The position numbers and the translations under genes are program-made. Below, piece after piece: positions 1-63,900 of a stretch of 64,000 bases of DNA; the stretch's first letter is position 1; each line of letters starts with the position of its first letter. The stretch is taken from contig CM059432.1 in the NCBI GenBank assembly GCA_030390025.1, forward strand, positions 16,990,001-17,054,000, in the 5' to 3' direction. This DNA is from Squalus acanthias. Taxonomy: Eukaryota. The notes under the pieces are model-generated. The model worked only from the letters and a program-made list of their open reading frames with translations. It searched no databases and was not told where the DNA came from.

Positions 1-149
1 CCACCTCATTGTCTTAGCTGTATTTTGCTGTGTCTTTGATGTAATGCCTTCCTGACTGGCCTGATTGTATCTCTGCCGAGCTGTGATGGAGGGCAGTCAG
101 AAGGATTTACTGTAGTCGTCTGACATTGTACGCTACACATTGTTCTCTG

Positions 150-10313: not shown

Positions 10314-10540
10314 CTGGAGTCCTTGTGCTCCAGGATCCACTTCCGTGTCTAAAACAGCGATGAGAACCCCCTTGCCATTGTATTCTGGGTACTGGGAGAA
10401 GAAAGACGCAGCGCCGGACTCTTTCTTCGGTAAAAGTGTCATCGAGATGAGCAGCCATGACTCGACTCTTGCTGCCGGCGCTGTCTGTGCCTGAACGGAG
10501 CGCTGCCGTCGCCTCTCGCCCCTCTCTCACTCGCCGCCAG
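10314..10540 (-). pseudogene. TPP2: TPP2 (tripeptidyl peptidase II) 5' UTR plus first coding exon, retrocopied fragment
   Basis: ATG at 10458 (MAAHLDDT), small frameshifting deletion, then [40 protein letters not shown], matching vertebrate TPP2 [42 protein letters not shown]-rich leader 10459-10540. Confidence 0.92.
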
Positions 10541-13242
10541 ATTGGCAGAGAGGGGGTAGGGAAAGCCAACTCAACGGTACCCTCCTCCTGTCGAAATGCT
10601 TAGAACATGGCCTTGTCATAACCAACACCTTGTTCCATCAGAGAGACAAGTACAAGGCTTCATGGCAGCACCCTCGCTCCAAGCACTGGCATCTGTTGGA
10701 CTACGTCATCGTCCGAGCGACGGACCGCAAGGACGTCCGCATCACCCGCGCCATGACAGGAGCTGACGACTGCTGGACAGACCACCGCCTAATCCGCTCT
10801 GTCATCTCCATCAATGTAGCCCCAAAACAGCGGCGGCAACAGAAACAATGCCGCAGGAAAATCAACGCTGGAGCATTCAAAGACCCCGCTAAGAAGGCCC
10901 TATTCAGCCTGCACCTCACAAACAACCTGACGACTCCCAGTGATGCAGAGACACAGAGTGCCCACAGCGCCTGGTCTGCACTCAAGGCCTCCATAATCAG
11001 CACCTGTGAAGAGACGCTCGGTCACTCGACCAAGAAACACCAAGATTGGTTCGACGAGAACGGCCAGGAGATCCAGGAGCTAATAAGCCGCAAGCGCAAG
11101 GCATTCCTGATCTGGAAACAGCAACACAACTCGAGAACAAGAAAGCAGCTCCACAGACGCCTGAAGGCCGAGGTCCAACAAAAAACTCGCGACCTAAAGA
11201 ACAGATGGTGGGTGGAGAAAGCGCAGGAGATCCAGCAGCTAGCCGACAACCACGACGTGCGTGAATTCTTTAGCGCAGTCAAGACCATCTATGGCCCAAC
11301 CACCCAAGGCCAAGAACGGAGAGGTAATCATCAAGGACAGAGAGGCAGTCAGTGCCAGCTGGAAGGAGCACTTCGAAGATCTCCTTAACCGCGACTCTGT
11401 CTTCGACGCAAGTTACCTCAACTCCATCCCGCAGCATGCTACCCGCCAGCACAACCCCAGCCCAGCATGAGGTTGAAAAGGCCATCCGACAACTGAAGAA
11501 CAACAAGGCCTCAGGAGCAGATGGAATCCCTGCCGAGGCACTAAAGCATGGTGGAGAAGCACTACTGGCGCGAATTCATGAACTCACTTCTCTTATCTGG
11601 AAGGAGGAGAGCATGCCAGGGGATCTCAGAGACGCCGTAATTGTGACCATCTTCAAGAAAGGTGACAAGTCCGATTGCGGTAATTACAGAGGAGTTTCCC
11701 TGCTGTCTGCCACAGGTAAAGTCATCGTAAGAATCCTCCTCAATCGCCTTCTCCCAGTGGCCGAAGAGCTCCTCCCAGAGTTGCAATGCGGATTCCGCCC
11801 ACTAAGGGGCACAATGGACATGATCTTCACCGCACATCAATTACAAGAGAAATGCAGGGAACAGCACCAATCACTGTACATGGCCTTCTTTGATCTCACA
11901 AAGGCCTTCGACACTGTCAACCGTGAGGGATTATGGAGTGTTCTCCTCAAATTCGGCTGCCCTCAAAAGTTTGTCACCATCCTCCGCCTGCTTCACGACG
12001 ACATGCAAGCCGTGATTCCGACCAACGGTTCCACCACAGACCCAATTCACGTACGGACCAGGTCAAGCAAGGCTGTGTCATCGCACCAACGCTCTTCTCG
12101 ATCTTGCTCGCTGCAATGCTTCATCTCACCCTCAGTAAGCTCCCCACTGGAGTGGAGCTAATTTACAAAACAAACAGGAAACTGTTCAACCTCCGTTGCC
12201 TCCAGTACAGATCCAAGGTTGTCCCATCCTCTGTCGTCGAATTACAGTATGCAGACGACGCTTGCGTCTGCGCTCACTCGGAGGTCGAACTCCAAACCAT
12301 CGTCAACACCTTCACCGAAGCGTACGAGAGCATGGGCCTTACACTAAACATCCATAAGACAAACGTCCTCTACCAACCTGCCCCCGCCACACAGTACTGC
12401 CCCCCGATTATCAAAATCCACAACAAGGCCTTGGACAACGTGGACCACTTTCCATATCTCGGGAGCCTACTGTCAACAAGGGCAGACGTCGATGACGAAG
12501 TCCAACACCGCCTTCAGTGTGTCAGTGCAGCCTTCAGTCGCCTGAGGAAGAGAGTGTTTGAAGACCAGGACCTCAAACCCGGCACCAAGCTCATGGTCTA
12601 CAGAGTAGCAGTGATACCCACCCTGCTGTATGCCTCAGAGACATGGACCATGTACAGCAGGCACCTCAAAGCACTGGAGAGGTACCACCAATACTGCCTC
12701 CACAAGATCCTGCAAATCCATTAGCAGGATAGGCGCACCAACGTCAGTGTTCTCGCTCAGGCCAAATCCCCAGCATCGAAGCTTTGACCACGCTCGATCA
12801 GCTCCGATGGACGGGTCACATCGTCCGCATGCCCGATACGAGACTCCCAAAACAAGCGCTCTACTCGGAGCTCCGACACGGCAAGAGAGCCCCAGGTGGG
12901 CAGAGGAAACGCTTCAAGGACACCCTCAAAGCCTCCTTGAAAAAGTGCAACATCCCCACCGACACCTGGGAATCCCTGGCCCAAGACCGCACAAAGTGGA
13001 GGAGAAGCATCCGGGAAGGCGCCGAGCACCTCGAGTCTCTTCGCCGGGAGCAAGCGGAAGCCAAGCGCAAGGAGCGCACGTCAACCCAAGCACCCCACCC
13101 ACCCGCCCCTTCAACCACCGTCTGCCCCACCTGTGACAGAGACTGTAGGTCCCGCACTGGACTCATCAGTCACCTGAGAACTCATTTTTAATGTGGAAGC
13201 AAGTCATCCTCGGTACCGAGGGACTGCCTAAGAAAGAAGAAA
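10541..13242 (+). pseudogene. RTE ORF (rest of endonuclease, RT, C-terminal C2H2 finger), frameshifted
   Basis: IGREGVGKAN..., WHLLDYVIVR, NYRGVSLL, FFDLTKAFDTV, VKQGCVIAP, LQYADD, CPTCDRDCRSRTGLISHLRTH; (aag) tail; several frameshifts and a stop at 12722. Confidence 0.93.
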
Positions 13243-27669: not shown

Positions 27670-30600
27670 GTCAGCCCCTCAAAATCAGCTTTTCTCCAAT
27701 CTATTAACCTGGTCTTCGTCATACTTATGTCCTTCTCAATTATCATCTTAAAGCGTATTATATTATGGTCACTATTGCCTAGATGTTCCCCTACTTTTAC
27801 TTCTCTTATCTGCTCTCGTTCATTCCCTATTACTAGTTCCAATAGCGAATCCTCCCTTGTTGGGCTTTTTACATATTGGGTTAGGAAGGAGTCCTGTACA
27901 CATTGTAGGAACTCTATTCCCTTATCCCCTTTACCTCTTCTGTCCAATTAATATCGGGGTAGTTGAAATCCCCCATGATTATTATTCTATGTTTTTTACT
28001 CATTTCCTTAATTTGTCTGCATATTTCTTCCTCCACCTCCCTTCCACTATTAGGTGGTCTGTAGACTACGCCTATTAGTGTGATTGATCCTTTATTATCT
28101 TTTATCTCTATCCATATGGATTCTATTTTTTTAATTCGTTTATGGGATGTGGGCGTCACTGGCAAGGCCAGCATTTATTGCCCATCCCTAATTGCCCTTG
28201 AGGAGGTGGTGGTGAACCACTGCAGTCCGTGTGGTGAAGATAGTCCCACAGTGCTGTTAGGTAGGGAGTTCCAGGATTTTGACCCAGCGACGTTGAAGGA
28301 GTGGCGATATACTTCTAAATCAGGATGGTGTGTGACTTGGAGGGGAACTTGGAGGTGGTGGTGTTCCCATGCGCCTGTTGCCCTTGTCCTTCTAGGTGGA
28401 AGAGGTCGCGGATTTGGGAGGAGCTGCCGAAGAAGCCTTGGTGAGTTGCTGCAGTGCATCTTGTAGATGGTACACACTACAGCCACAGTACGCCGGTGTT
28501 GGAGGGAGTGAATGTTTAAGGTGGTGGATGGGGTGCCAATCAAGCGGGCTGCTTTGTCCTGGATGGTGTCGAGCTTCTTGAGTGTTGTTGCAGCTGCACT
28601 CATCCAGGCAAGTGGAGAGTATTCCATCACACTCCTTACTTGTGCCTTGTAGATGGTGGAAAGGCTTTGGGGAGCCAGGAGGTGAGACACTCGCCGCAGA
28701 AACCTAGCCTCTGACCTGCTCTTGTTGCCACAGTATTTATGTGGCTGGTCCAGTTAAGTTTCTGGTCAATGGTGACACCCAGGATGTTGATTGTGGGGGA
28801 TTTGGTGATAGTAATGCCATTGAATGTCAAGGGCCGGTGGTTAGACTCTCGCTTGTTGGAGATAGTCATTGCCTGGCACTTGTGTGGCGCGAATGTTACC
28901 TGCCACTTATCAGCCCAAGCCTGAACATCGTCCAGGTCTTGTTGCATGTGGGCATGGACTGCTTCATTATCTGAGGAGTTGTGAATGGCGCTGAACACTG
29001 TGCAGTCATCAGCGAACATCCCCATTTCTGACCTTATGTTGGAGGGAAAGTCATTGATGAAGCAGCTGAAGATGGTTGGGCCTAGGACATTGCCCTGAGG
29101 AACTCCTGCAGCGATGTCCTGGGGCTGTGATAACTGACTTTCAACCACCACAACCATCTTCCTTTATGCTAGGTATGACTCCAGCCAGTGGAGAGTTTCT
29201 CACCCCCGATTCCCATTGACTTCAGTTTTACTAGGGCTCCTTGATGCCACACTCGGTCAAATGCTGCCTTGATGTCAAGGGCAGTCACTCTCACCTCACC
29301 TCTGGAATTCAGTTCCTTTGTCCATGTTTGGACCAAGGCTGTAATGAGCTCAGGAGCCGAGTGGTCTTGGCGAAACCCAAACTGGGCATCAGTGAGCAGG
29401 TTATTGGTGAGTAAGTGCCACTTGATAGTACTGTTGACACCTTCCATCACTTTGCTGATGATTTTGTCTTGCTGAAAGCTGCGTCACTTTTTTCTACTGC
29501 CATAATGTTATCCCTACTAAGTACAGCTACTTCACCTCCCCTTTTTCCCTCTCTATCTTTTCTAAATATGTTATACCCTGCAATGTTTAATTCTCAGTCC
29601 TGCTTTTTCTGTAGCCATGTCTCCTACAAGTCTGGTTCCTCGCAACGCATGATTGCCTCCAGCTCCCCTATTTTATTATGGACACGGTGTGCATTGCTGT
29701 ACAGACAGTTTAACTCATTTTTAATAGGATTTCCTCTCACTTTATGTTTAACCATCTTTTTAGACTCCTGTTCTATAACTCTATTTATTCGTTTGTCATC
29801 AATGTCCTCCCTTACTTTATTCTTTCCAATGCTCTCTTTACCTGTTTTGTTTGTATTTCGGCTGGTTACGTTTCTTGTAGATCCCTCCCCCCATCTTACT
29901 AGTTTAAAGCCTTTGCCACCTCCCTATTTACCCTTTTCGCTTGGACACGGGTCCCATCCCAGTTCAGGTGGAACCCGTCCCATCGGTACAGCTCCTTCCT
30001 GTCCCAGAACTGGTGCCAGTGTCCCATGAAAAGGAACCCCTCTTTCCCACACCAGCCCTTTAGCCATGTGTTAATTCTTCTGATCTGTCTGTTTCTATGC
30101 CAATTTGCACATGGCTCGGGTAATAATCCAGAGATTATTACCCTCGAGGTCCTGCTTTTTAATTTAGAGCCTAACTCCTGATACTCTTTCAGCAGGACCT
30201 CCTCCCTGTTCCTACCTATGTTGTTTGTTCCAACATGGACCATGACAACTAGATTTACCCCCTCCATTTCCAAGTTTCTCTCCAGCTGCCATGAGATATC
30301 CCTTACCCGGGAAGGCAACACACCCTTCAGGATTCTTGTTTTTGGCTGCAGAGGACACTATCTATCCCCCTAACTATAGAGTCCCCTATCATTACCACAT
30401 TTCTATTCTGCTCTTCCCCCCCCCTTGGACAGCCTTCTGAGTCACGGTGCCTTGGTCTGCATTGTGGCTGTCCTCCCTGCAGTCTTTCTCCTTGTCCTCA
30501 CAGGTCACGAGTACATCGTACCTGTTAGACAGGACCAGTGTCTGCGGGACCTCCTTCTCAACCTCTCCTAAATCCCTGCTACCCAGCTCCCTAACAGTCA

Positions 30601-39725: not shown

Positions 39726-40849
39726 TCAGACTCTGAATAGCTGGTCACGGACCGCCCATCCGGAAGGCCGATTGTCTGGCTGCCTCCTCTCTCCCCCTTG
39801 TTCCTCTCCCTCCTCGTCCTCCTCCTGAGGTGGTCCTGCAATCCCTGGTGGCAAGGGCTGCGTCCTCATGATGGCCAAGTTGTGGAGCATGCAGCAGATC
39901 ACCACGAAATGGGACATCCGCTCTGCCGAGTACTGGAGGGCTCCTCCTGTGTGGTCAAGGCAGCGGACTGTTGCTTCAGTAGGCCGATGGTCTGCTCGAT
40001 GATGTTCCTGGTGGCAGCATGGCTCTCATTATCAGAGTGTTGGGCACGAGTATTGGGGTTGCGGAGGGGAGTCATGAGCCAGGTGGAGAGTGGATAGCCC
40101 TTGCCTCCGAGCTGCCACCCTTGAGCTTGACGTGGTGGCTGGAAGAGTGCTGGCACACCGGTCTGGCACAGGAGGAAGGCATCGTGGCTGCTGCCAGGAT
40201 AGCGGGCATTGACATTGAGGATTTGCTGTGTGTGGTCGCACACCAACTGCACATTAAATGAGTGGTAGACTTTGCGGCTACAGAAGATCTCAGGATTGTT
40301 ATGCGGTGCCCGCAAAGCCACATGGGTGCAGTCGATGGCGCCCTGCACCATGGGGAAGCCCGCTATCCTGGCAAAGCCACTTGCATGCTAGTCCTGCTTC
40401 TCTCTGGTGATCAGGAAGCCAATGCAGTCCCTTCTCCTGGTGTAGAGAGCCTCAGTGACCTCCCAGATGCAGCAATGGATGGCGAACTGGGAGATGTTAG
40501 CTACGTCTCCTGCTGCAGACTAGAAGGATCGCTGGCGAAGAAATTGAGGGCCACAGTGCCACTGGAGAGTTGTGGTCACCCTGGTCTGAGGCTGGAGGTC
40601 TGGTTGCAAGAGGCGGCAGAGTTCTGTGACCACCTCCTTGGTGAAGCGAAGCCTCCTAATACACTGCTCCTTGCTTAATTGAAGGTAGGAGATGTGCTGT
40701 TGGAAGACCCTCAGAGGGTAAGGCCTCCTGTTGAGAGCCCTGATGGCCCTCCTCCTCCCTCTGCGCACATGTTCCCGTCTTTCTCGCTGCCTTCGCTCTC
40801 TCCGCCGTAGATCCTGGAGGGTGAGGTCGACTGCCAGTACAGCCCCCAT
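39726..40849 (-). pseudogene. Harbinger (HARBI1-like) DDE transposase, frameshifted
   Basis: GAIDCTHV, YHSFNVQLVCD, YPGSSHDA, GKGYPL..WLMTP, RNIIEQTIGLLK, CCMLHN; ORF broken into three pieces and second Asp (GDKGY) reads GGKGY. Confidence 0.92.
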
Positions 40850-41573
40850 GACTTTCAGCAAGTGTTGTAGTTTGAAGTGTTTCAAAAGTAATGAGGGAGT
40901 TTTGTACTTGCCAGAACACTCCCTGATACTAAATAACCTTGAAATGACTAAAGAAAACTCTTGCAGTAACAGGAATTAGCACACAACCACACAACTTCAA
41001 AACCCTGTCAGGTGTGAGTGATTGGTGAGGATTCCTTTAAATAGCGTCGCTGGAGCTGGCTTCCTGTGGCTGCTCACCACCTCAACCTGTCATTGCTTTC
41101 TCCAGCCAGTAAGTTCAATGGCCAAAACGAAGTTGGGAGATGGGGCGTCAAGTGAGCGTTGCACGCTCACTGACGTCATGATCTCCGTGATTGCGATGTC
41201 ACTGGCGACCGAATTTATCGGCTGCGCTACTGGCAAGACGGATATGGTGTGTGGTGCTGGAACCGCCATCAGCTCATGGTAGAGCTCTGAACGACGTTTT
41301 AGCGCCATCTCGTGGTGCTAACGTGTGGCGCTAAACACACAAATTTCTCCCCGAGTGTATAAACAAGTAGCATAGTAAACTAAACATCTCTGCAGAATCA
41401 TCCAAAATAGTGACTGAAGGCTACATTCTCCCACCACCTCAGTCTTTGCACCAGCTCTCACAACAGGAACTCACATTTCCATGTCATCTCAGGCGTTGAG
41501 CTTCTGGCCTTGAGCCACCACCTACCACCCCTGTATCTGGCGATTTTGTCACATTGGGATGTCTCTGTCCTGC

Positions 41574-54000: not shown

Positions 54001-54754
54001 ATTGTGGTCACTATCTCCAAAGTGCTGTCCCACATACAAATCAAACACTTGGCCCGGTTCATTACCCAGTACCAAATCCAATGTGGCCCCACCTCTTGTC
54101 GGCCAATCCACATATTGTGTCAGGAAACCCTCCTGCACACACTGTGCAAAAACTATCCCATCCGAACTGTTTGACCTATAAAGGTTCCAATCAATATTTG
54201 GAAAGTTGAAGTCACCCATGACAACTACTCTGTGACCTCCACACCTATTCATAATCTGCTTTGCAATTTCTTCCTCCACATCTCTATTACTATTTGAGGG
54301 CCTGTAGAAAACTCCTAACAACGTGACCGCTCCTTTCCTATTTCTAACTTCAGCCCATATTACCTCAGACGGCAGATCCCCCTCGAACTGCCTTTCTGCT
54401 GCTGTTAAACTATCCTTGATTAACAATGCTACTCCTCCACCTTTCTTACCACCTTCCCTACTCTTACTGAAACATCTATACCCCGGAACTTCCAACAACC
54501 ATTCCTGTCCCTGTTCTAACCATGTCTCCGTAATGGCCACCACATCGTAGTCCCAAGTACCAATCCACGCTCCAAGTTCTCCTACCTTATTCCGGATGCT
54601 CCTTGCATTGAAGTAGACACACTTCAAGCCACCTTCCTGTCTGCCGGTACATTCCTGCGACCTTGATACCCTCCTCAGTACCTCCCTACACTCACCACTG
54701 ACTCCTGGACGACAGCCCTTTTTCCCATCCCCCTGACAAATTAGTTTAAACCCC
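51023..54754 (-). mobile_element. Younger CR1 with complete ORF2 region, truncated at the ORF1/ORF2 junction
   Basis: 613-aa ORF (endonuclease to RT start), frameshift near 52930, KFADD; (ttctatg)n tail. Confidence 0.92.
51611..52353. mobile_element. Harbinger-type MITE, subtype B, opposite orientation
   Basis: TIRs GGGGGAAAAATT / AATTTTTACCCC, TSD TTA. Confidence 0.88.
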
Positions 54755-56100
54755 ATTTCCTTATTGCCTATTATAATTTTCCTGTCTCTAATGGGCCCAC
54801 GTTTACTTTCACTAATCTCTTCCTATTTCCATACCTATAGAAACGTTTACAACCTGTTTTTATGTCTCTTGCTAATTTACTCTCTTTTTTTCTTTCCATA
54901 TCAATTTCTTGGCCCTTCTTTGCTGAATTCTAAAATCCTTCCAATCCTCAGGCTTACTACTTTTTTGGCAACATTATAAGCCTCTTCCTTTGATCTAATA
55001 CTATCTTTAACTTCTCTTAGCCACTTTTCCTGTGGGGTTTTTGTGCCTTAAAGAAATGTATATTTGTTGTAAATTATGTATTAATTCTTTAAATGCTAGC
55101 CATTGCCTGTCTACTGTCATATCTTTTAATGTAGCTTCCCAATCTACCTTAGCCAACTCGCCCCTCATACCTACGTAGTTTGCTTTGTTTAGATTTAAGA
55201 CCCTAGTTTCGGACCTAACTAAATCACTTTCAAACTCAATATAAAATTCTATCATATTATGGTCACTCTTCCCTCAAGGCCTCTTTACTACAAAGTTATT
55301 AATTAACCCTTTCTCATTGCACAATACTAGATTTATACTCTGCCCTACATTACAACTGTCTGGGGGCCTGTTAACAACTCCCACCAATGTTTTCTGCCCC
55401 TTGCTGTTTGTTAGCTCCATCCAAACTGATTCTACTTCTTGATTTTCCAAGCCAAGATCCTTTCTCTCTACTGTCTTTATCCTATCCATTATTATCAGGG
55501 CTACCCTCCTCCTTTTCCATTTTGCCTATCTCTTCTAAAAGTTAAGTATCCTGGAATATTTAGTTCCCAACCTTGGTCACTTTGCAACCACATCTCCGTA
55601 ATGCCTATTAGATCAAACCTATTCATTTCTATCTGCGTTATTAATTCATCTATTTTGTTGCGAATGCTTCGGGCATTCAGATATAGTGCCTTTAGCTTTG
55701 ACTTTTTTCTATTTTTCCCTGATGTCACCTTAGTCACTGATGCCTGATTACATTTATTACTTTTTCTGTCCTTTCCTGACCCACTCTGCTTATTTTACTC
55801 TAAACTCTGCTCTGCTCTGGAGCCTTGACATTTCCCTTGCTGCTTTTAAATTTACTCTTTCCTGAATCCTCCCACATGCCGCCCCTTCATTAGTTTAAAG
55901 CCCTGTCTACTGCCCTAGTTATTCGATTCGTTAGGACACTGGTTCGAGCTCCAGTTTAAGTGGAGCCCGTCCCAACAGAATAGTGCCATGGGATCTTTTA
56001 CATCCACCTATGAAGGCAGACAGGACCTTGGTTTAACGTCTCATCTGACAGCAGCACCTCCAACAGTGCAGCACTCCCTCAATACTGCACTGAAGTGATT

Positions 56101-56663
56101 GGCCCAAAATTTGCTGTCAAAATAATGGCGAGGCGAATAGCACTCACCGTTATTTATGTGCAAATGCCACAGCAACTTCAGGCGAGGGCAGATGCACGAT
56201 TAAACACGGAAATCGAAAAGACGCTGTCGGAGATACGTTGCTCTGCTGTTAGCTTTGCAAAAACGGTATCTTGCTGTCTGGCTCCCCATTCACATGCATT
56301 GAGTGGCGTGAAGCTCCTCTACTTGCATTGTAGATATGAAGTAAGCTCTCCACAGGAAGTTACGTCAAGTCATTTCAGTCTAAGTACGCTTTTAACAATG
56401 TGATAAGTGTTAATTACTGCCAGTCAACCTTTCTGGCACTGAGAATTAACTATTACAAATGTAGAGTCTCATTCTTTCAGGTTTTAATTGTTGTTGGAGA
56501 TTTAATTTTTTTTAAATTAAAACAATCTTTTTACTTTTTCTTTCTCTCTTAATCCAATCTCTCTTTATTTCTCTTTCTGTACCTGATTTGACATTGAACT
56601 CAACCATTCTTACACTTTCTTATCAGACTTTGCGCTGTTAATTTCAGAATCCCTTCAATCTGA
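56101..56663. mobile_element. Left part of a Harbinger-like non-autonomous element, interrupted by CR1
   Basis: Starts GGCCCAAAATTTG like the other Harbinger-type ends; right TIR not in window. Confidence 0.45.
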
Positions 56664-56972
56664 GGTCACAAATTTTTTGGTCTCAGTTTCTTTTCAGCAG
56701 GGCAGGACGGTTACCGGGAGGAGCGGGAAGTCGGCGTAGGACCAAGGGGACACAAGACCGGGAAGTCAGCGAAAGACCAGGGAGGTAAGACTAACTGGTA
56801 AGTACTTTCCTCAAACCTTCCTAGAAAGTAAAACTAAAACTAGTGGGATTTGGTTAGTTTAAAAAGGAATAAGAGGAGTACAGTATACATTGGTCTAAGT
56901 AAGCTTCGGGAAAACAAAAGTCAATAAATAAACTAAAACCAGAAAATTAAAAAGTAATATAAGGGTTAAGTC

Positions 56973-57919
56973 ATGGCAGTAGAGCTCGGACCTGTGTCAT
57001 GCTCCTCCTGTAACATGTGGGAAATCAGGGACGCTTCCTGTGGCCCTGACAACCATGTGTGCGGGAAGTGTGTCCAGCTGCAGCTCATGTGGGACCGCAT
57101 GACGGCCCTTGAGCTGCGGATGGACTCACTTTGGAGCATCCACGATTCTGAGAGGGTTGTGGATAGCACATTTAGTGAGTTGGTCACACCGCAGGTTAAG
57201 GCCAGCGTAGATAGTACATGGGTGACCAAAAGGCAGAGCAAGGGCAGGAAGGTAGTGCAGAAATCCCCTGGGGTTGTCTCCCTTAGCAACAGGTTCACCG
57301 CCTTAGGTGCTGTTGTCGGGGGGGATGACTCATCGGGGGAAGGCACCAGCAGCCAGGCTCATGGCACCATGACTGGCTCTGTTGCAAAGAAGGGAGGGAA
57401 AAAGGTGGCAGGGCTATAGTAATAGGGGATTCGATTGTAAGGGGAATAGATAGGGGTTTCTGTGGTCGCGACCGAGACTCCAGGATGGTATGTTGCCTCC
57501 CTGGTGCAAGGGTCAAGGATGTCTCGGCGCGGGTGCAGAACATTCTGGAGGGGGAGGGGGAACAGCCAGTTGTCGTGATACATGTTGGTACCAACGACGT
57601 AGCTAAAAAAAGGGAAGAGGTCCTACAAGTAGAATTTAGGGAGTTAGGAGCCAAGCTAAAAAGTAGGACCTCGAAGGTAGTAATCTCTGGATTACTACCA
57701 GTGCCACGTGCTAGTAAGAGTACAGAGAACAGGATAGTTAGGCTAAATACGTGGCTTGAGCAGTGGTGTAAGAGGGAGGGTTTTAAATTTTTGAGGCATT
57801 GGAACCAGTTTTGTGGTAGGTGTGACCTATACAAAAGGGACGGTCTACACCTGTGCAAAGATGGAACTGATGTTCTCGGGGTAATTTTTGATAAAGCAGT
57901 TCGGGAGCATTTAAACTAG
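56973..57919 (+). CDS. CR1 ORF1 (zinc finger/leucine zipper plus SGNH esterase), one 1-nt frameshift
   Basis: CSSCNMWE...CGKC, IGDSIV, HVGTND, DGLHL; adding one A to the run at 57399-57403 joins the two ORFs. Confidence 0.85.
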
Positions 57920-60861
57920 TATGGCAGGGGGCTAGAAACCTATGTAGTGAAATAGAGGAAAGTGAAAGGCAGACAGAAATAAATGGTAAAAGGGTGAGGA
58001 ACAAAAAACAAAGGGCCAAACTAATTCATAAAAAATGTGAGCATAAAAAAAGCCTGAGGGTTTTATACCTTAATGCGAGAAGCATCAGGAACAAGGTAGA
58101 TGAATTAGCTGTGGAAATAGAGGTTAATAATTATGATCTAATTGGGATTACGGAAACATGGTTGCAGGGTGAGCAGGGCTGGGAGCTTAACATACAGGGG
58201 TATTCAGTATTTAGGAAGGATCGACAAAAAAGAAAGGGAGGAGGGGTAGCATTGCTGGTAAAAGAGGGGATAAATGCAATTGAAAGGAAGGATATTAACT
58301 CAGTTAATACAGAATCTATATGGGTGGAGCTAAGAAATAGCGAGGGGCGAAAAACATTAATAGGAGTGGTATATAGGCCTCCAAATAGTAAAATAGAGGT
58401 TGGGGAGGGCATCACGAGGGAAATTAGAGAAGCGTGCAATAAGAGCACAGCTGTCATCATAGGTGACTTTAACTTACATATAGATTGGACTAGCCTAATC
58501 AGTAAAAATAATGAGGAGGAGGAATTCCTTGAGTGTTTAAGGGATGGTTATCTGGATCAATATGTCGAGGAACCAACTCGGGAACAGGCTATATTGGACT
58601 GGGTACTGTGCAATGAGAAGGGACTAATTAGTAATCTTGTTGTACGGGGACCCTTGGGTCAGAGCGATCATAACATGATCGATTTCTCACTCGAAATGGA
58701 GAGCGAAGAAATTGACTCAGAGACTAAGGTCCTGAATTTAAACAAGGGGACTTATGATGCCATTAGACGGGAACTGAGTAGGTCTGATTGGACAACGTTC
58801 CTGGGAGGACTGGAGGTAGATAAACAATGGCAAGCATTTAAAGATAGAATGACAAAATTGCAAAAATTGTTTATACCAATCTGGCATAAAAGGAAATCTA
58901 AAAAGGTGACTCAACCGTGGATAACAGGGGAAATTAGAGACAGCATAAAATCCAAAGATAGGGCGTATAAAATAGCCAAAAAAAGCGCCAGAGCGGAAGA
59001 TTGGGAACAGTTTAAGATAGAGCAAAGGAGGACAAAGGGCTTAATCAAGAGGGGCAAAATAGCTTACGAAAGCAAGCTGGCGGAAAATATAAAAACTAAC
59101 TCCAAAAGCTTTTATAAGTATATCAAGAGGAAAAGACTGGTGAAAACCAAAGTTGGTCTATTGCAGTCAGATACGGGGGAATATATAACGGGAAATAAGG
59201 AAATGGCAGACCAACTAAATGCATACTTTGGGTCAGTCTTTACGAAGGAAGACACAAAAAACCTCCCTGGGATATCGGGAAAAATAGGGACATTGGCAAA
59301 GGAGGAACTGACGCAAATCAATATCTCTAAGGATATGGTGTTAAGGAAGCTAAAGGGATTGAAGGCGGACAAATCCCCAGGGCCTGATAACATGCATCCT
59401 AGGGTACTGAAGGAGGTGGCCCTAGAGATAGCGGATGCACTAAGTATGATTTTTCAAAATTCATTAGACTCGGGAACAGTGCCCATGGATTGGAGGGTAG
59501 CTAACGTTACCCCACTATTCAGAAAGGGGGGTAGGGAAAAAGCAGGTAATTACAGACCTGTAAGCCTTACATCAGTTGTGGGCAAAATGCTGGAGTCCAT
59601 CATTAAGGATGAAATAGCGGAGCACTTAGCAAATGGGGACAGGATAGGACAGAGTCAACATGGATTTACAAAGGGTAAATCGTGCTTGACTAATCTATTG
59701 GAATTTTTTGAGGGAGTAACTGGTAAAATAGATGGGGGAGAGCCAGTAGATGTGGTGTACCTGGACTTCCAAAAGGCCTTCGACAAGGTCCCACATAAAA
59801 GATTAGCATGGAAAATTGAAGCTCATGGGATAAAGGGGAAAGTATTGACGTGGATAGAGAACTGGCTGTCAGATAGAAAACAGAGAGTTGGAATAAACGG
59901 CTCATTTTCTGAATGGCAGGCAGTAACAAGTGGGGTACCACAGGGATCTGTCCTGGGTCCCCAGCTGTTCACAATTTACATTAATGACCTGGATCAGGGA
60001 GTCGGATGCAGCATTTCCAAATTTGCAGATGACACTAAACTAGGAGGGGGGGTGGGCTCAGAGGAGGAGACCAGGAAGCTCCAGAGCGATTTGGACAGAC
60101 TGGGTGATTGGGCGGATAAATGGCAGATGCACTATAATGTGGACAAGTGCGAAGTTATCCACCTTGGGTGCAGGAACGGGAGGGCAAATTATTATTTAAA
60201 TGGCAATAAATTGGGAGAGGGGGAAGTACAGAGAGACCTGGGTGTTCTTGTACACCAGTCACTGAAGGCGAGCATGCAGGTGCAACAGGCGGTCAAGAAG
60301 GCAAACGGTATGCTGGCCTTCATAGCAAAAGGGTTGGAATACAGGAACAGGGATACCTTGCTGCAGCTGTACAGGGCACTGGTGAGACCACACCTCGAGT
60401 ACTGTGTACAGTTTTGGTCGCCTCATCTGAGGAAAGATGTTCTTGCCATGGAGGGGGTGCAGCGGCGATTCACCAGGCTGATACCAGGAATGGCGGGATT
60501 GACCTATGAGGAGAGACTATGTAGTTTAGGGATGTACACACTGGAGTTTAGAAGATTGAGAGGGGACCTCATAGAAGTGTATAAAATTCTGACAGGTCTA
60601 GACAGACTAGATGCAGAAGGAATGTTTCCCTTAGCGGGTGAGAACAGAACTAGAGGACATAATTTAAGGATAAGGGCTAAACCATTTAGGACAGAAATGA
60701 GGGGGAATTTCTTCACTCAGAGGGTGGTGAACCTGTGGAACTCATTGCCACAGAGGGCAGTGTACGCCAGCTCATTAAATATATTTAAGAGGGAATTAGA
60801 TATATTTCTACAGGCAAAAGGGGTTAAGGGTTACGGAGAGAAGGCGGGGACGGGATACTGA
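57916..60861 (+). CDS. CR1 ORF2 (APE endonuclease plus reverse transcriptase), uninterrupted
   Basis: 955 aa open from 57994 (GTG) and open upstream to the ORF1 stop; ITETW, GDFN, SDHN, PQGSVLGP, KFADD. Confidence 0.95.
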   Translation, partial: LVWQGARNLCSEIEESERQTEINGKRVRNKKQRAKLIHKKCEHKKSLRVLYLNARSIRNKVDELAVEIEVNNYDLIGITETWLQGEQGWELNIQGYSVFRKDRQKRKGGGVALLVKEGINAIERKDINSVNTESIWVELRNSEGRKTLIGVVYRPPNSKIEVGEGITREIREACNKSTAVIIGDFNLHIDWTSLISKNNEEEEFLECLRDGYLDQYVEEPTREQAILDWVLCNEKGLISNLVVRGPLGQSDHNMIDFSLEMESEEIDSETKVLNLNKGTYDAIRRELSRSDWTTFLGGLEVDKQWQAFKDRMTKLQKLFIPIWHKRKSKKVTQPWITGEIRDSIKSKDRAYKIAKKSARAEDWEQFKIEQRRTKGLIKRGKIAYESKLAENIKTNSKSFYKYIKRKRLVKTKVGLLQSDTGEYITGNKEMADQLNAYFGSVFTKEDTKNLPGISGKIGTLAKEELTQINISKDMVLRKLKGLKADKSPGPDNMHPRVLKEVALEIADALSMIFQNSLDSGTVPMDWRVANVTPLFRKGGREKAGNYRPVSLTSVVGKMLESIIKDEIAEHLANGDRIGQSQHGFTKGKSCLTNLLEFFEGVTGKIDGGEPVDVVYLDFQKAFDKVPHKRLAWKIEAHGIKGKVLTWIENWLSDRKQRVGINGSFSEWQAVTSGVPQGSVLGPQLFTIYINDLDQGVGCSISKFADDTKLGGGVGSEEETRKLQSDLDRLGDWADKWQMHYNVDKCEVIHLGCRNGRANYYLNGNKLGEGEVQRDLGVLVHQSLKASMQVQQAVKKANGMLAFIAKGLEYRNRDTLLQLYRALVRPHLEYCVQFWSPHLRKDVLAMEGVQRRFTRLIPGMAGLTYEERLCSLGMYTLEFRRLRGDLIEVYKILTGLDRLDAEGMFPLAGENRTRGHNLRIRAKPFRTEMRGNFFTQRVVNLWNSLPQRAVYASSLNIFKRELDIFLQAKGVKGYGEKAGTGY

Positions 60862-60977
60862 ATTGGAGGATCAGCCATGATCTCATTGAATGGCGGAGCA
60901 GGCTCGAAGGGCCGGATGGCCTACTCCTGCTCCTATCTTCTATGTATCTATGTATCTGATCGGTTAAGGAGATACAG

Positions 60978-63900
60978 TGCAGTGGACTAGAGTGCAGTTT
61001 GTCACAGAGTGCAGATTGGAACAGAGTGTTAATCTATGAGTTTGGTGAGTGAGGGAGTAAATCTTAAAGGTTAATCTCTTATTTTAGTCTTGTGTGCTTG
61101 CAATTAGCATTTAAATTTACTGTTCCAAGTTTAAGTTTCTTCCAGGCTTGGGCAGGGCTAAGCAAGCTCTGTGCTGGAGAGCAGGTGAGAGTAATTAATT
61201 AATTAACTGGTCTAATCTGGTTCTGTAACTGCCAGAGAGCTCACTTATTTAAATCTCAGCAGTAAAATAAGGGAGACTAGAGTGCAGTTTGTCACGGAGT
61301 GCAGATTGGAACAGAGTGTTAAGCTGCGAGTTTGGTGAGTGAGGGAGTGCGGGGAGGGAGGTGTTCCTTCCTTTTTCCATCTTTGTCAGCTTCCTGGTGC
61401 GGCGGCGGACCTGCATGAGGCGAGGCGGCGGCAGAGGGTTTAAAAGGCTCCAGAGACCAGGTAAGGCGGGACCAGTCTCCGAACTCGGAGGGAGGGAGAG
61501 AGGTAAAAAATAATAGAGGTGTGACGTCACCAGAAAGCAGGTAAGTAATTGGTTGGTGAGCATTTCTCTCTTTTTAAACTTAAACTCTGTGGTTTATAGT
61601 TTCTAAGGTGTGATATTCATCAGGCGGGGCAGAGGGTATTTAAAAAATATTAATAAATTTAATTAATTACATAGAATGGGAGAGCAGGTGATGTGTTACT
61701 GCTGCAATATGTGGGAGCTGGTGGACACCATTGATGCTCACGGTGATCACATTTGCAGTAAGTGTTGGCTGCTCGAGGAACTCCGGCTCCGTGTTGATGA
61801 GCTGGAGTCCGAGCTTCAAACACTGTGACACATCAGGGAGGGGGAGAGTTACCTGGACTCCGTGTTCCAGGAAGTAGTCACACCAATTAGATTAACTAAT
61901 TCAGATGTAGTCCGTGGTCAGGGACAGGAGGGTGTGACTATGAGTGAGGCAGGTACGGGGATCCAGGAGGTAGTGTTGGAGGAGCCGCAGCCCTTGCTCT
62001 TGTCCAACAGGTTCGAGGCTCTTACTCCCTGTGAGGACGGGAGCAGGGACTGCAGGGAGGATGAGCAACCTGGCCACAGCACCGTGGAACGGGGGGCCAT
62101 TCAAGTCGGGGGAGTAAAAAGAAATGTTGTAGTGGTAGGGGATAGTATCATAAGGGGGATAGATAGGGTTCTTTGCAGCCGAGAGCGAGAGTCCCGAAGG
62201 TTGTGTTGCCTGCCCGGTGCCAGGGTTAAGGACATCTCCTCTGGGCTGGAGAGAAACTTGGAGTGGGAGTGGGAGGGGGAGGATCCAGTTGTCGTGGTCC
62301 ATGTTGGTACCAACGACATAGATAGGACAAGGAAAGAGGTTCTGCTGAGGGAGTATGAGCAGCTAGGGGCCAAATTAAAAAGCAGAACCACAAGGGTAAT
62401 AATCTCTGGATTACTACCTGAGCCACGAGCAAATTTGGCTAGGGTAAATAAAATCAGAGAGTTAAATGCGTGGCTCAAAGACTGGTGTGGGAGAAATGGG
62501 TTTTGCTTCTTGGGACACTGGCACCAGTACTGGGACGGGAGAGAGCTGTTCTGTTGGGACGGACTTCACTTGGCCAGTGCTGGGACTAGAATCCTGGCGA
62601 ATCGAATAACTCGGGCTGTAGAGAGGGCTTTAAACTAATTAGTGGGGGGGAGGTTTCAAGAGAGCGAAGAATAAAAATGTCAGCGGAGAAGGCAATAGAG
62701 CAAATTAGCAGTGGGGAAATTAAAAACCAGAGCGTGTCAGGAAGGGACAGAATATATAAAGATAAAGGTAAAGTAGTAAAGGGGGTAAAAGCAGGAATAA
62801 ATTGTCACAAAACATGTTTAAAAGTTCTTTATCTGAATGCATGCAGCATTCGTAACAAAATAGACGAGTTGACAGTACAAATAACTACACATGGGTATGA
62901 TCTGGTGGCCATTACAGAAACATGGCTGCGAGGTGACCATGACTGGGAACTAAACATCCAGGGGTATTTGACTATTAGGAAGGACAGACAGGAAGGAAAG
63001 GGAGGTGGGGTGGCTATGTTAATAAAGGATGGAATCACTGCAATAGTGAGAAATGATATTGGGTCAAAGAATCAGGATGGTGAAACAGTTTGGGTAGAGA
63101 TAAGGAATAATAAGGGGAAAAAGTCACTAGTGGGCGTAGTCTATAGGCCTCCTAACAGTTGTAACTCTATTGGTCGGAGTATAAATCAGGAAATAGTTGG
63201 GGCTTGTAATAAGGGAACAGCTATAATCATGGGAGATTTTAACTTTCATATTGACTGGACAAATCAAATTGGGCAGGGCAGCCTTGAGGAAGAGTTCATA
63301 GAGTGCATTAGGGATGGGTTCCTTGAGCAGTATGTTACTGAACCAACCAGGGGCAGGCAATCTTAGATCTGGTCCTGTGTAATGAGACAGGATTAATAAA
63401 AAATGTCCTAGTAAAGGATCCCCTTGGAATGAGTGACCATAACATGGTTGAATTCCAAATTCAGTTAGAGGGTGAGAGAGTTGGATCTCAAACCAGCGTA
63501 CTAAGCTTAAATAAAGGAGACTATGAAGGTATGAGAGCAGAGTTGACTAAGGTGGACTGGGAAAATAGATTAAGGTGTAAGAAGGTACAGGCGCAGTGGT
63601 GTACATTCAAGGAGGTATTTCACAACTTTCAAGAAAAATATATTCCACTTAGGAAAAAGAGGCGTAAAAGAAAAGACAGCCATCCGTGGCTAAATAAAGT
63701 AATAAAGGATAGTATCCGACTGAAAACAAGGGCATATAAAGTAGCCAAATCTAGTGGGAGGATAGAAGATTGGGAAGCATTTAAAAGCCAGCAAAGAATA
63801 ACTAAAAGATTAATTAAGAAGGGGAAGATAGATTATGAAAGTAAACTAGCAAAAAATAAAAAACAGATAGCAAGAGTTTCTACAGTTATATAAAAAGAAA

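Follow-up and report, generated by a model that had tools for sequence, protein, structure and literature searches.

The window, by which we mean the whole 64,000-nucleotide stretch of Squalus acanthias DNA that was analysed, carries copies of LINE elements on both strands, with the following features.

56973..57919, + strand: ORF1 of the main CR1 copy, with N-terminal Cys motifs and an SGNH/GDSL esterase; frameshifted near 57.4 kb; C-terminus ...E-H-L-N-stop
57910..57916, + strand: slippery heptamer U_UUA_AAC of the main copy, made up of one base and the two final codons of ORF1
57917..57919, + strand: ORF1 stop codon TAG of the main copy, directly 3' of the heptamer
57927..57931, + strand: GGGGG of the main copy, exactly 10 nt past the heptamer, a candidate stimulator
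57910..60861, + strand: ORF2 of the main copy in the -1 frame, with a 54-codon linker, APE endonuclease (conserved Asn at 58072) and reverse transcriptase; first AUG at 58675
60938..60957, + strand: 3' tail of the main copy, where short 8-nt-like repeats, read directly from the sequence, close the element
62629..62650, + strand: second junction, with heptamer, TAA and G-run; ORF1 esterase 5', endonuclease 3'
54729..54750, - strand: third junction, with heptamer, TAA and G-run; the copy lies within ORF2 of the 55899 copy, and its 5' end is cut off about 4 nt ahead of the heptamer
29887..29908, - strand: fourth junction, with heptamer, TAG and G-run; ORF1 esterase upstream
55878..55899, - strand: fifth junction, decayed, with heptamer, TAA overlapping an AUG (TAATG) and an interrupted G-run; about 20 ORF1 codons remain

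We assign these elements to the CR1 LINEs of the esterase type from their domains, their 3' repeats and their similarity to bird-type copies. Three ORF1s in the window match PF13472 (SGNH/GDSL esterase), and the ORF2s carry PF03372/PF14529 (APE endonuclease) and PF00078 (reverse transcriptase, RT). CR1 LINEs end in short tandem repeats rather than poly(A), and this typical end is present in the main copy as the 8-nt-like repeats at 60938-60957. Bird-type copies, whose ORF1s match named bird proteins, are 34-55% identical to the window ORF2, depending on the segment. An esterase-type ORF1 and an ORF2 with APE and RT are shared with the vertebrate CR1 LINEs described in the excerpted text of PMC13343379.

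An earlier, sequence-only reading of this DNA had proposed five ORF1/ORF2 junctions at which TTTAAAC is followed by TAA or TAG. The heptamer and stop are indeed present at all five sites, but two of the copies are 5'-truncated. The one at 54744-50, cut about 4 nt 5' of the heptamer, has no ORF1 in the window, although copies of its family elsewhere in the genome do carry ORF1 and end GGT TTA AAC TAA; the one at 55893-99 has heptamer and stop but keeps some 20 ORF1 codons. The 57910 copy, described as intact, is so in ORF2 (983 codons counted from the heptamer) but not in its frameshifted ORF1. As had been noticed, its first in-frame AUG lies late in the endonuclease, at codon 256 (nt 58675), directly after the SDH motif, and four copies run without a stop in the -1 frame into the endonuclease, the 55899 copy stopping after 12 codons. 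The G-run said to follow each stop by a few nucleotides begins exactly 7 nt past it, or 10 nt past the heptamer, in four copies; in the 55899 copy it has decayed. The 10-mer TTTAAACTAR occurs six times in the window against 0.35 expected, a count never reached in 100 shuffles; the sixth match, on the minus strand at 56854-63, lies in antisense orientation within the 5' part of the 57.9-kb element and marks no junction.

We extended the analysis to junctions located with the ORF1 esterase profile minus its last three residues. Of 232 junctions, 5 with too little flank and 13 identical duplicates were left out; the survey covered 200 unique junctions from the shark's own genome and 14 bird-type junctions from metagenome host contigs; the lineages are related, and all counts are therefore of non-independent events. 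The exact heptamer was found in 191 of the 200 shark junctions, with one mismatch in 7 more (2 showed no junction), and in 8 of the 14 bird-type junctions, the other 6 deviating. The ORF1 stop that follows it in the 200 shark junctions is TAA in 161, TAG in 33 and TGA in 1. In the window, in the survey and in the tree described below, the X_XXY_YYZ heptamer stands in phase with the zero frame. Random genome stretches (200 kb) contained few junctions, and a search of viral contigs with the vertebrate alignments gave no match.

The heptamer is, as far as sequence comparison can tell, constrained as nucleotides rather than as amino acids, across shark and bird-type lineages. This had been suggested from the window copies, together with a proposal to compare synonymous sites, and the comparison bears the suggestion out. 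On a tree of 23 of the 29 lineage copies (the other 6 had short or broken ORF1 tails; median DNA identity of the ORF1 tails 0.47), the terminal Leu codon TTA underwent no change, whereas 13 of the 14 other conserved columns changed 3-8 times each and the other conserved Leu codons 5, 8 and 6 times; TTA makes up 14% of ORF1 Leu codons. The residue at position -3 changed 8 times on the same tree (A, G, D, H, C, I, T), and its third base never did. At the protein level, 48 of 62 representatives (clustered at 50% identity, with a match reaching the profile end) terminate in LN; in 1 of these 48 the residue before LN is one whose codons never have U as third base (K, Q, E, M, W), and such residues number 16 and 18 of the 48 at the next two positions.

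Among the 185 junctions with the endonuclease motif, the domain lies in the -1 frame in 144, in +1 in 31 and in frame 0 in 10, the latter two groups being read here as decay and indels in the G-run. The modal distance from the heptamer to the endonuclease Asn ranges from 117 to 270 nt and is a multiple of 3 in all lineages bar one decayed. Linkers are open in 40/43, 30/33, 27/27 and 23/23 in-frame copies of the four largest lineages. Across 17 lineage copies (a table that excludes L112 and L278, which have no junction, and L189 and L229, whose linker is replaced and whose lineage is already included), stops number 2, 79 and 98 in the -1, 0 and +1 frames over 1032 codons, in a sample whose selection favoured open frames; going upstream from the heptamer, the -1 frame meets a stop within 3-15 nt in 16 of the 17.

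Start codons vary among families. Two families have no Met before the endonuclease Asn, in 27/27 and 23/23 copies, their first Met lying at codon 256 and codon 167. A linker Met of some kind is found in 12 of the 17 lineage copies; in the 62629 copy an in-frame AUG precedes the endonuclease, and its large family has an AUG at codon 17 in 47 of 54 copies. Judged from these sequences, the downstream ORF lies in -1, is open from the heptamer and appears to lack an independent start in some families, not all. In-frame ORF1-ORF2 fusions (L235, L237, L244) were considered as support and dropped: they are not enriched, given that in this lineage the G-run 5' of the heptamer varies from 1 to 13 in length and the frames split 24 (-1), 8 (+1) and 4 (0).

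Programmed -1 ribosomal frameshifting at the CR1 ORF1/ORF2 junction is, in our assessment, the best reading of these data, with a probability of roughly 0.85. A conserved heptamer, an adjacent stop and an ORF2 continuing in the -1 frame make it likely that a fraction of ribosomes slips back one base. Most ribosomes would terminate and release ORF1p; in a minority, tRNA-Leu (on UUA) and tRNA-Asn (on AAC) would re-pair on UUU and AAA and translation would continue with CUA. The product would be an ORF1-ORF2 fusion (esterase-endonuclease-RT), with ...EHLN-LVWQG... as the predicted junction of the main copy, and one mRNA would yield much ORF1p and little RT, as in gag-pol. A pause may come in addition from slow termination at the stop next to the heptamer; with the stop in the A site, the G-run would be 7 nt away, within the usual spacer of 5-9 nt. 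The sequence-only reading had arrived at the same mechanism, and every prediction of it that could be put to the sequences here held.

According to the excerpted text of a review (PMC7618472), frameshifting rarely exceeds 1% unless a stimulatory motif is present. No conserved stem-loop was found 5-9 nt downstream in 28 80-mers, folded without pseudoknot modelling and in C-poor regions; these 80-mers fold no better than 60 dinucleotide shuffles each (mean z -0.14, 1 of 28 below -2). The Rfam search of the junction returned no match. Long-range pairing of the G-rich motif was rejected because the best partners lie at differing places in the 10 elements compared (an eleventh could not be joined and was left out), with none common to them. 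The earlier impression that there is no clear pseudoknot agrees with these folds, partner searches and Rfam result. A 7-bp hairpin about 28 nt downstream occurs in some bird-type copies only. By these measures the junction does not look like a structure-stimulated site of the canonical coronavirus or retrovirus type.

The G-run itself is strongly conserved. GGGGG stands at +11..15 in 176 of 200 shark and 10 of 14 bird-type junctions, often with GG or GGG two bases on. In 29 lineage copies the Gly in this run is encoded by GGG 27 times, compared with 32% of Gly codons elsewhere; the preceding codon has a final G in 28 of the 29 and spans 7 different residues. A two-tier G-quadruplex pattern is present in 18 of 28 copies, a count made without shuffle control, and is absent from the main window copy; no three-tier pattern was evident near the site in these 28. 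The 10-nt spacer exceeds the usual 5-9 nt and the optimum of 6-8 nt for G-quadruplexes given in the literature excerpts, and GGGGG fits the longer spacer (10-14 nt) of the protein-stimulated sites of arteriviruses and cardioviruses. We infer, less surely than the slip itself, that the G-rich motif takes the place of a stem-loop or pseudoknot as stimulator, in all likelihood by binding a protein.

Termination followed by reinitiation would restart translation in the -1 frame at or just past the ORF1 stop, at an AUG or independently of one, with the heptamer and G-run as cis-signals and a separate ORF2p as product. An open linker is expected under this scheme too, and the stop adjoining the heptamer and its near-restriction to UAA/UAG, neither of which a textbook tandem slip requires, speak for it. 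There are precedents in the available passages: mammalian L1 ORF2 is thought to initiate independently of its AUG (PMC5009743), and SART1 uses a UAAUG overlap (PMC3894237), of which the equivalent TAATG is found in 6 of 194 junctions and in the 55899 copy. Yet the codons overlapping the stop (ATT, ACT, GTA, AAA, AAT and others) share no start codon, and reinitiation predicts neither an in-phase exact X_XXY_YYZ with a frozen wobble base in the preceding codon nor the apparent switch to QGN discussed below. We consider it improbable.

Far less probable still is that splicing, editing or transcriptional slippage joins ORF2 to an upstream AUG, with the motif serving as signal for the splice or the slippage. 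G-runs are able to act as splicing elements, GTAAG-type sites resembling donors occur in the 5' regions of the 57.9-kb and 62.6-kb copies, and the TAG past the heptamer could serve as acceptor in some lineages; but the stop is TAA, which does not end in AG, in 161 of 200 junctions, and TTTAAA has no long homopolymer. Raw reads of two RNA runs, and two contig sets, were placed on 56650-61100; neither a joint nor an indel reached a 5% share at the junction, a weak comparison, with copies pooled, a related species label and low depth (36-93 raw reads per strand class in the junction bin). That there is no recoding signal at all, LN being a C-terminal protein constraint or shared ancestry and ORF2 starting from a downstream AUG or internal entry site, is scarcely credible: nearly all these ORF1 proteins do end LN and some families have a linker AUG, but synonymous positions are frozen only at the junction, so that the tree largely refutes this, families whose first AUG comes at codon 167-256 would be left with little of the endonuclease, and the linker stays open and in frame from the heptamer.

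Several known systems bear comparison with the CR1 junctions. U_UUA_AAC is the frameshift site of IBV (PMC5009743, in excerpt), and coronavirus ORF1a/1b and retroviral gag-pol share with CR1 an X_XXY_YYZ heptamer, a 5' structural ORF and a 3' polymerase in -1; CR1 differs by having no stem-loop or pseudoknot 5-9 nt on, by the stop adjoining the heptamer and by being a non-LTR retrotransposon, not a virus. In arterivirus nsp2TF (PRRSV nsp1beta/PCBP), the available text of PMC7618472 describes an unstructured low-complexity stimulator motif 10 nt past the shift site. The CR1 G-run, a candidate stimulator, is also 10 nt downstream, but the arterivirus motif is C-rich and the heptamers differ. Mammalian L1 and SART1 likewise have bicistronic LINE mRNAs, with low ORF2 output. 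L1 has a spacer and an AUG and SART1 couples through UAAUG, whereas the CR1 ORFs overlap in -1, several families having no usable AUG. ORF2 initiation in LINEs is called an open question in the part of PMC3894237 available. The contrast drawn by the sequence-only reading with studied LINEs, said to reinitiate, needs a qualifier, since Dictyostelium TRE5-A and TRE3-A are said to depend on a -1 frameshift for their ORF2 (PMC5911963, in excerpt). Like CR1, these are APE-RT non-LTR elements with two ORFs, but they belong to the L1 clade, live in an amoeba and lack an esterase ORF1; in CR1 there are in addition a canonical heptamer, retained from one vertebrate lineage to another, and a G-run at a constant position. 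Excerpts of the CR1 literature found by term, a set lying apart from the original CR1 descriptions, contain no mention of programmed frameshifting.

The mechanism may reach further. ORF1 proteins of a distant clade end in QGN, which would fit a second classic slippery site, G_GGA_AAC; this heptamer is a guess from protein, because no DNA of the clade was found in the viral or genome contigs searched. A wider proposal, which we regard as tentative and rather unlikely in its entirety, is that esterase-type CR1s from sharks to birds and probably beyond, with the distant clade swapping to G_GGA_AAC, obtain their RT as part of an ORF1-ORF2 fusion by way of a novel type of -1 signal: the heptamer, a pause at the UAA/UAG directly after it and, 10 nt on, a G-run without structure that would be read by a protein, either a host G-tract binder or ORF1p.

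If frameshifting occurs as proposed, the CR1 enzyme would be a gag-pol-like esterase-endonuclease-RT fusion made in fixed proportion to ORF1p. Gene models that begin ORF2 at its first AUG would then, for several families, leave out the greater part of the endonuclease, and CR1 assays would have to retain the junction, a signal of about 30 nt. A G-run constant in position and free of RNA structure suggests a type of stimulator absent from the reviews, as far as their excerpted text goes. The CR1 group is the dominant retrotransposon in most vertebrate species, according to the excerpt of PMC13343379. Should the wider proposal hold, CR1 would provide the first case of protein-stimulated frameshifting in a transposon, and the commonest retrotransposon of non-mammalian vertebrates would have a point of control there.

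Our results suggest, with a probability of about 0.85, that these CR1 LINEs carry a real and deeply conserved signal that, judging from sequence comparison, acts in the manner of a programmed -1 frameshift site. The heptamer U_UUA_AAC (TTTAAAC) and the ORF1 stop were confirmed at all five sites named by the sequence-only reading:

CR1 heptamer sites in the window
57910, + strand: TTTAAAC followed by TAA or TAG (main copy)
62629, + strand: TTTAAAC followed by TAA or TAG
54750, - strand: TTTAAAC followed by TAA or TAG
29908, - strand: TTTAAAC followed by TAA or TAG
55899, - strand: TTTAAAC followed by TAA or TAG

This 10-mer occurs six times in the window against 0.35 expected, the sixth match being antisense in a 5' region. 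Pfam places an SGNH esterase upstream of the junctions and an APE endonuclease and a reverse transcriptase downstream, and the named ORF1 homologues are those of sharks, rays and two bony fishes, plus a single flatworm record, which makes a cartilaginous fish the most probable source of the window. The claim that every site is an ORF1/ORF2 junction must be narrowed: the 54750 copy has the heptamer but is truncated about 4 nt before it and lacks ORF1 in the window (its family has ORF1, with the same ending, elsewhere in the genome), and the ORF1 of the 55899 copy is reduced to about 20 codons. The main copy, described as intact, is so for ORF2 (983 codons open from the heptamer) but not for ORF1, which is frameshifted near 57.4 kb; its first in-frame ORF2 AUG is indeed late, at codon 256 counted from the heptamer. 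The CR1s at 54750-55899 (-) are nested, the 54750 copy lying in ORF2 of the 55899 copy and starting inside the G-run that immediately precedes its heptamer, with a few G common to both sides of the join. Two CR1 5' regions (56690-56970 and 61380-61680, +) each have two GTAAG donor-like sites before the ORF1 AUG, which suggests an intron in the 5' UTR. From their translations, decayed ORFs at 39899-40975 (-) and 10495-13191 (+) resemble what we take to be a Harbinger-type transposase and an RTE-type LINE, respectively.

Junctions were sampled from seven protein searches of the shark's own genome (the best 30 loci of each), from neighbouring and random DNA totalling 200 kb, and from 49 metagenome loci. 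The latter hold bird-type host DNA: of 12 named proteins compared, those of birds match their ORF1s best. Esterase profiles without their last three residues located 232 junctions in this DNA, of which 227 had sufficient flank and 214 were unique. In this sample of best matches, biased to young families and not a census, 191 of 200 own-genome junctions carried the exact heptamer (7 had one mismatch, 2 lacked a junction), as did 8 of 14 bird-type ones (3 had one mismatch, 3 had more than one). TAA and TAG interchange freely as ORF1 stop in the 200 own-genome junctions; TGA occurs only once, although CTA and CTG would both encode Leu in the -1 frame.

The constraint on the heptamer is at the nucleotide rather than the protein level. 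We compared one natural copy per lineage, 29 in total. The copy picker required TTTA near the junction, a demand that some copy satisfied in all 23 linker-defined lineages (those remaining without L112, L278, L189 and L229); the filter was not applied to six additional bird-type copies. On a tree of 23 of these copies, with length 6.3 and a median identity of 0.47, no change fell on the terminal Leu codon and one, synonymous, on the Asn codon, against 5, 8 and 6 at the three further conserved Leu columns. Of 14 other conserved columns, 13 had 3-8 changes and one, a His column, had 1. The preceding residue changes eight times among seven amino acids, always with U as third base, in line with the sequence-only reading. 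LN ends 48 of the 62 protein cluster representatives whose match reaches the profile end, in a wider set whose named members include turtle and monitor lizard. Residues whose codons cannot end in U stand before LN in just 1 of these 48 proteins, but in 16 and 18 of them at the next two positions, a supportive test only, as positions -6, -7 and -10, being hydrophobic, are also low.

The reading frame points the same way. For 144 of 185 junctions the endonuclease motif is in frame -1 (+1 in 31, 0 in 10), and this frame is kept across linkers of 117 to 270 nt with wholly different sequences. In-frame copies were stop-free in 40/43, 30/33, 27/27 and 23/23 cases in the four largest lineages. Across 17 lineage copies, one of them (L055) chimeric, the -1 frame holds 2 stops, against 79 and 98 in the other two, which are never open. 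In 16 of the 17 a stop closes the -1 frame 3-15 nt before the heptamer, so entry must be at about the heptamer or later. Met is absent before the endonuclease Asn in all copies of two families (27/27 and 23/23). Against this pattern, the linker contains a Met in 12 of the 17 copies, though not at the same position, one family has it at codon 17, and TAATG occurs in 6 of 194 junctions. In the family of L235, L237, L244 and other G000 matches, the heptamer is preceded by a long G-run of variable length, and in some copies ORF1 and ORF2 share a single open frame, up to 1290 codons long. Other shifts are about equally common, so the cause is probably an unstable homopolymer or an error of assembly. 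As rival explanations, reinitiation at the junction is unlikely and an RNA-level route very improbable. When two runs of raw reads and two sets of contigs were aligned to 56650-61100, the rows listed included neither a joint nor an indel at the junction. This is weak evidence against splicing and does not bear on translation, as the reads pool many copies and come from material labelled as a related species or only guessed to be RNA. That there is no recoding signal is the least credible reading, given the nucleotide-level constraint.

Downstream folding found no conserved fold, in agreement with the earlier failure to see a clear pseudoknot, nor did a long-range partner search or an Rfam comparison. 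A short hairpin lies about 28 nt past the heptamer in some bird-type lineages only (L088, L104, L085). GGGGG starts exactly 10 nt past the heptamer in 176/200 own-genome and 10/14 bird-type junctions, and two bases beyond it GG is present in 27 and 24 of 29 lineage copies at its two positions. The G-run is kept at synonymous positions: its Gly codon is GGG in 27/29 copies, against 32% of Gly codons elsewhere, the preceding wobble base is G in 28/29, and on the tree its positions changed 0, 0, 1, 2 and 5 times, compared with 4-11 times for positions 26-44. According to a review, spacers usually measure 5-9 nt, but 10 nt in PRRSV, where a protein binds a C-rich motif, and 13-14 nt in cardioviruses (PMC7618472); G-quadruplexes stimulate best at 6-8 nt (PMC3919603). 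Spacing and synonymous conservation together argue for the G-run as a putative stimulator, most likely protein-bound. A G-quadruplex is possible in some lineages; the two-tier pattern is absent from the main copy. Speculatively, slippage might instead occur while the stop codon occupies the A site, the G-run then being 7 nt away, which would also account for the stop always directly following the heptamer. By the test for canonical RNA-structure-stimulated sites the CR1 site is not one of them, and it is like protein-stimulated sites in spacing only.

A distant esterase-ORF1 clade (P0249, P0253, P0260, P0294-P0314) ends QGN, KGN or AGN. Its 21 distinct proteins end G-N after Q (19), K or A; Q never precedes LN among 158 distinct LN-ending proteins. 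Codons for Q, K and A can all end in G, so G_GGA_AAC would fit; PMC5009743 lists both it and U_UUA_AAC with the sites where shifting is most likely. Judged from protein sequence, and for the most part from a single clade, a swap to G_GGA_AAC is possible; viral and genome contigs yielded no DNA of this clade.

TRE5-A and TRE3-A require a -1 frameshift, according to PMC5911963. Passages of PMC5006619, PMC4255032, PMC2734521, PMC13343379, PMC4316615, PMC3905857, PMC5911963, PMC7618472, PMC3919603, PMC3894237 and PMC5009743 (where CR1 is unmentioned in the part covered) describe no CR1 frameshift, nor did a literature search, beyond whose reach lay most subscription journals and the original CR1 descriptions, find a paper on it; the original papers may hold an earlier remark. 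The signal would offer a brief explanation, open to direct testing, of how a major LINE of vertebrates produces its enzyme.
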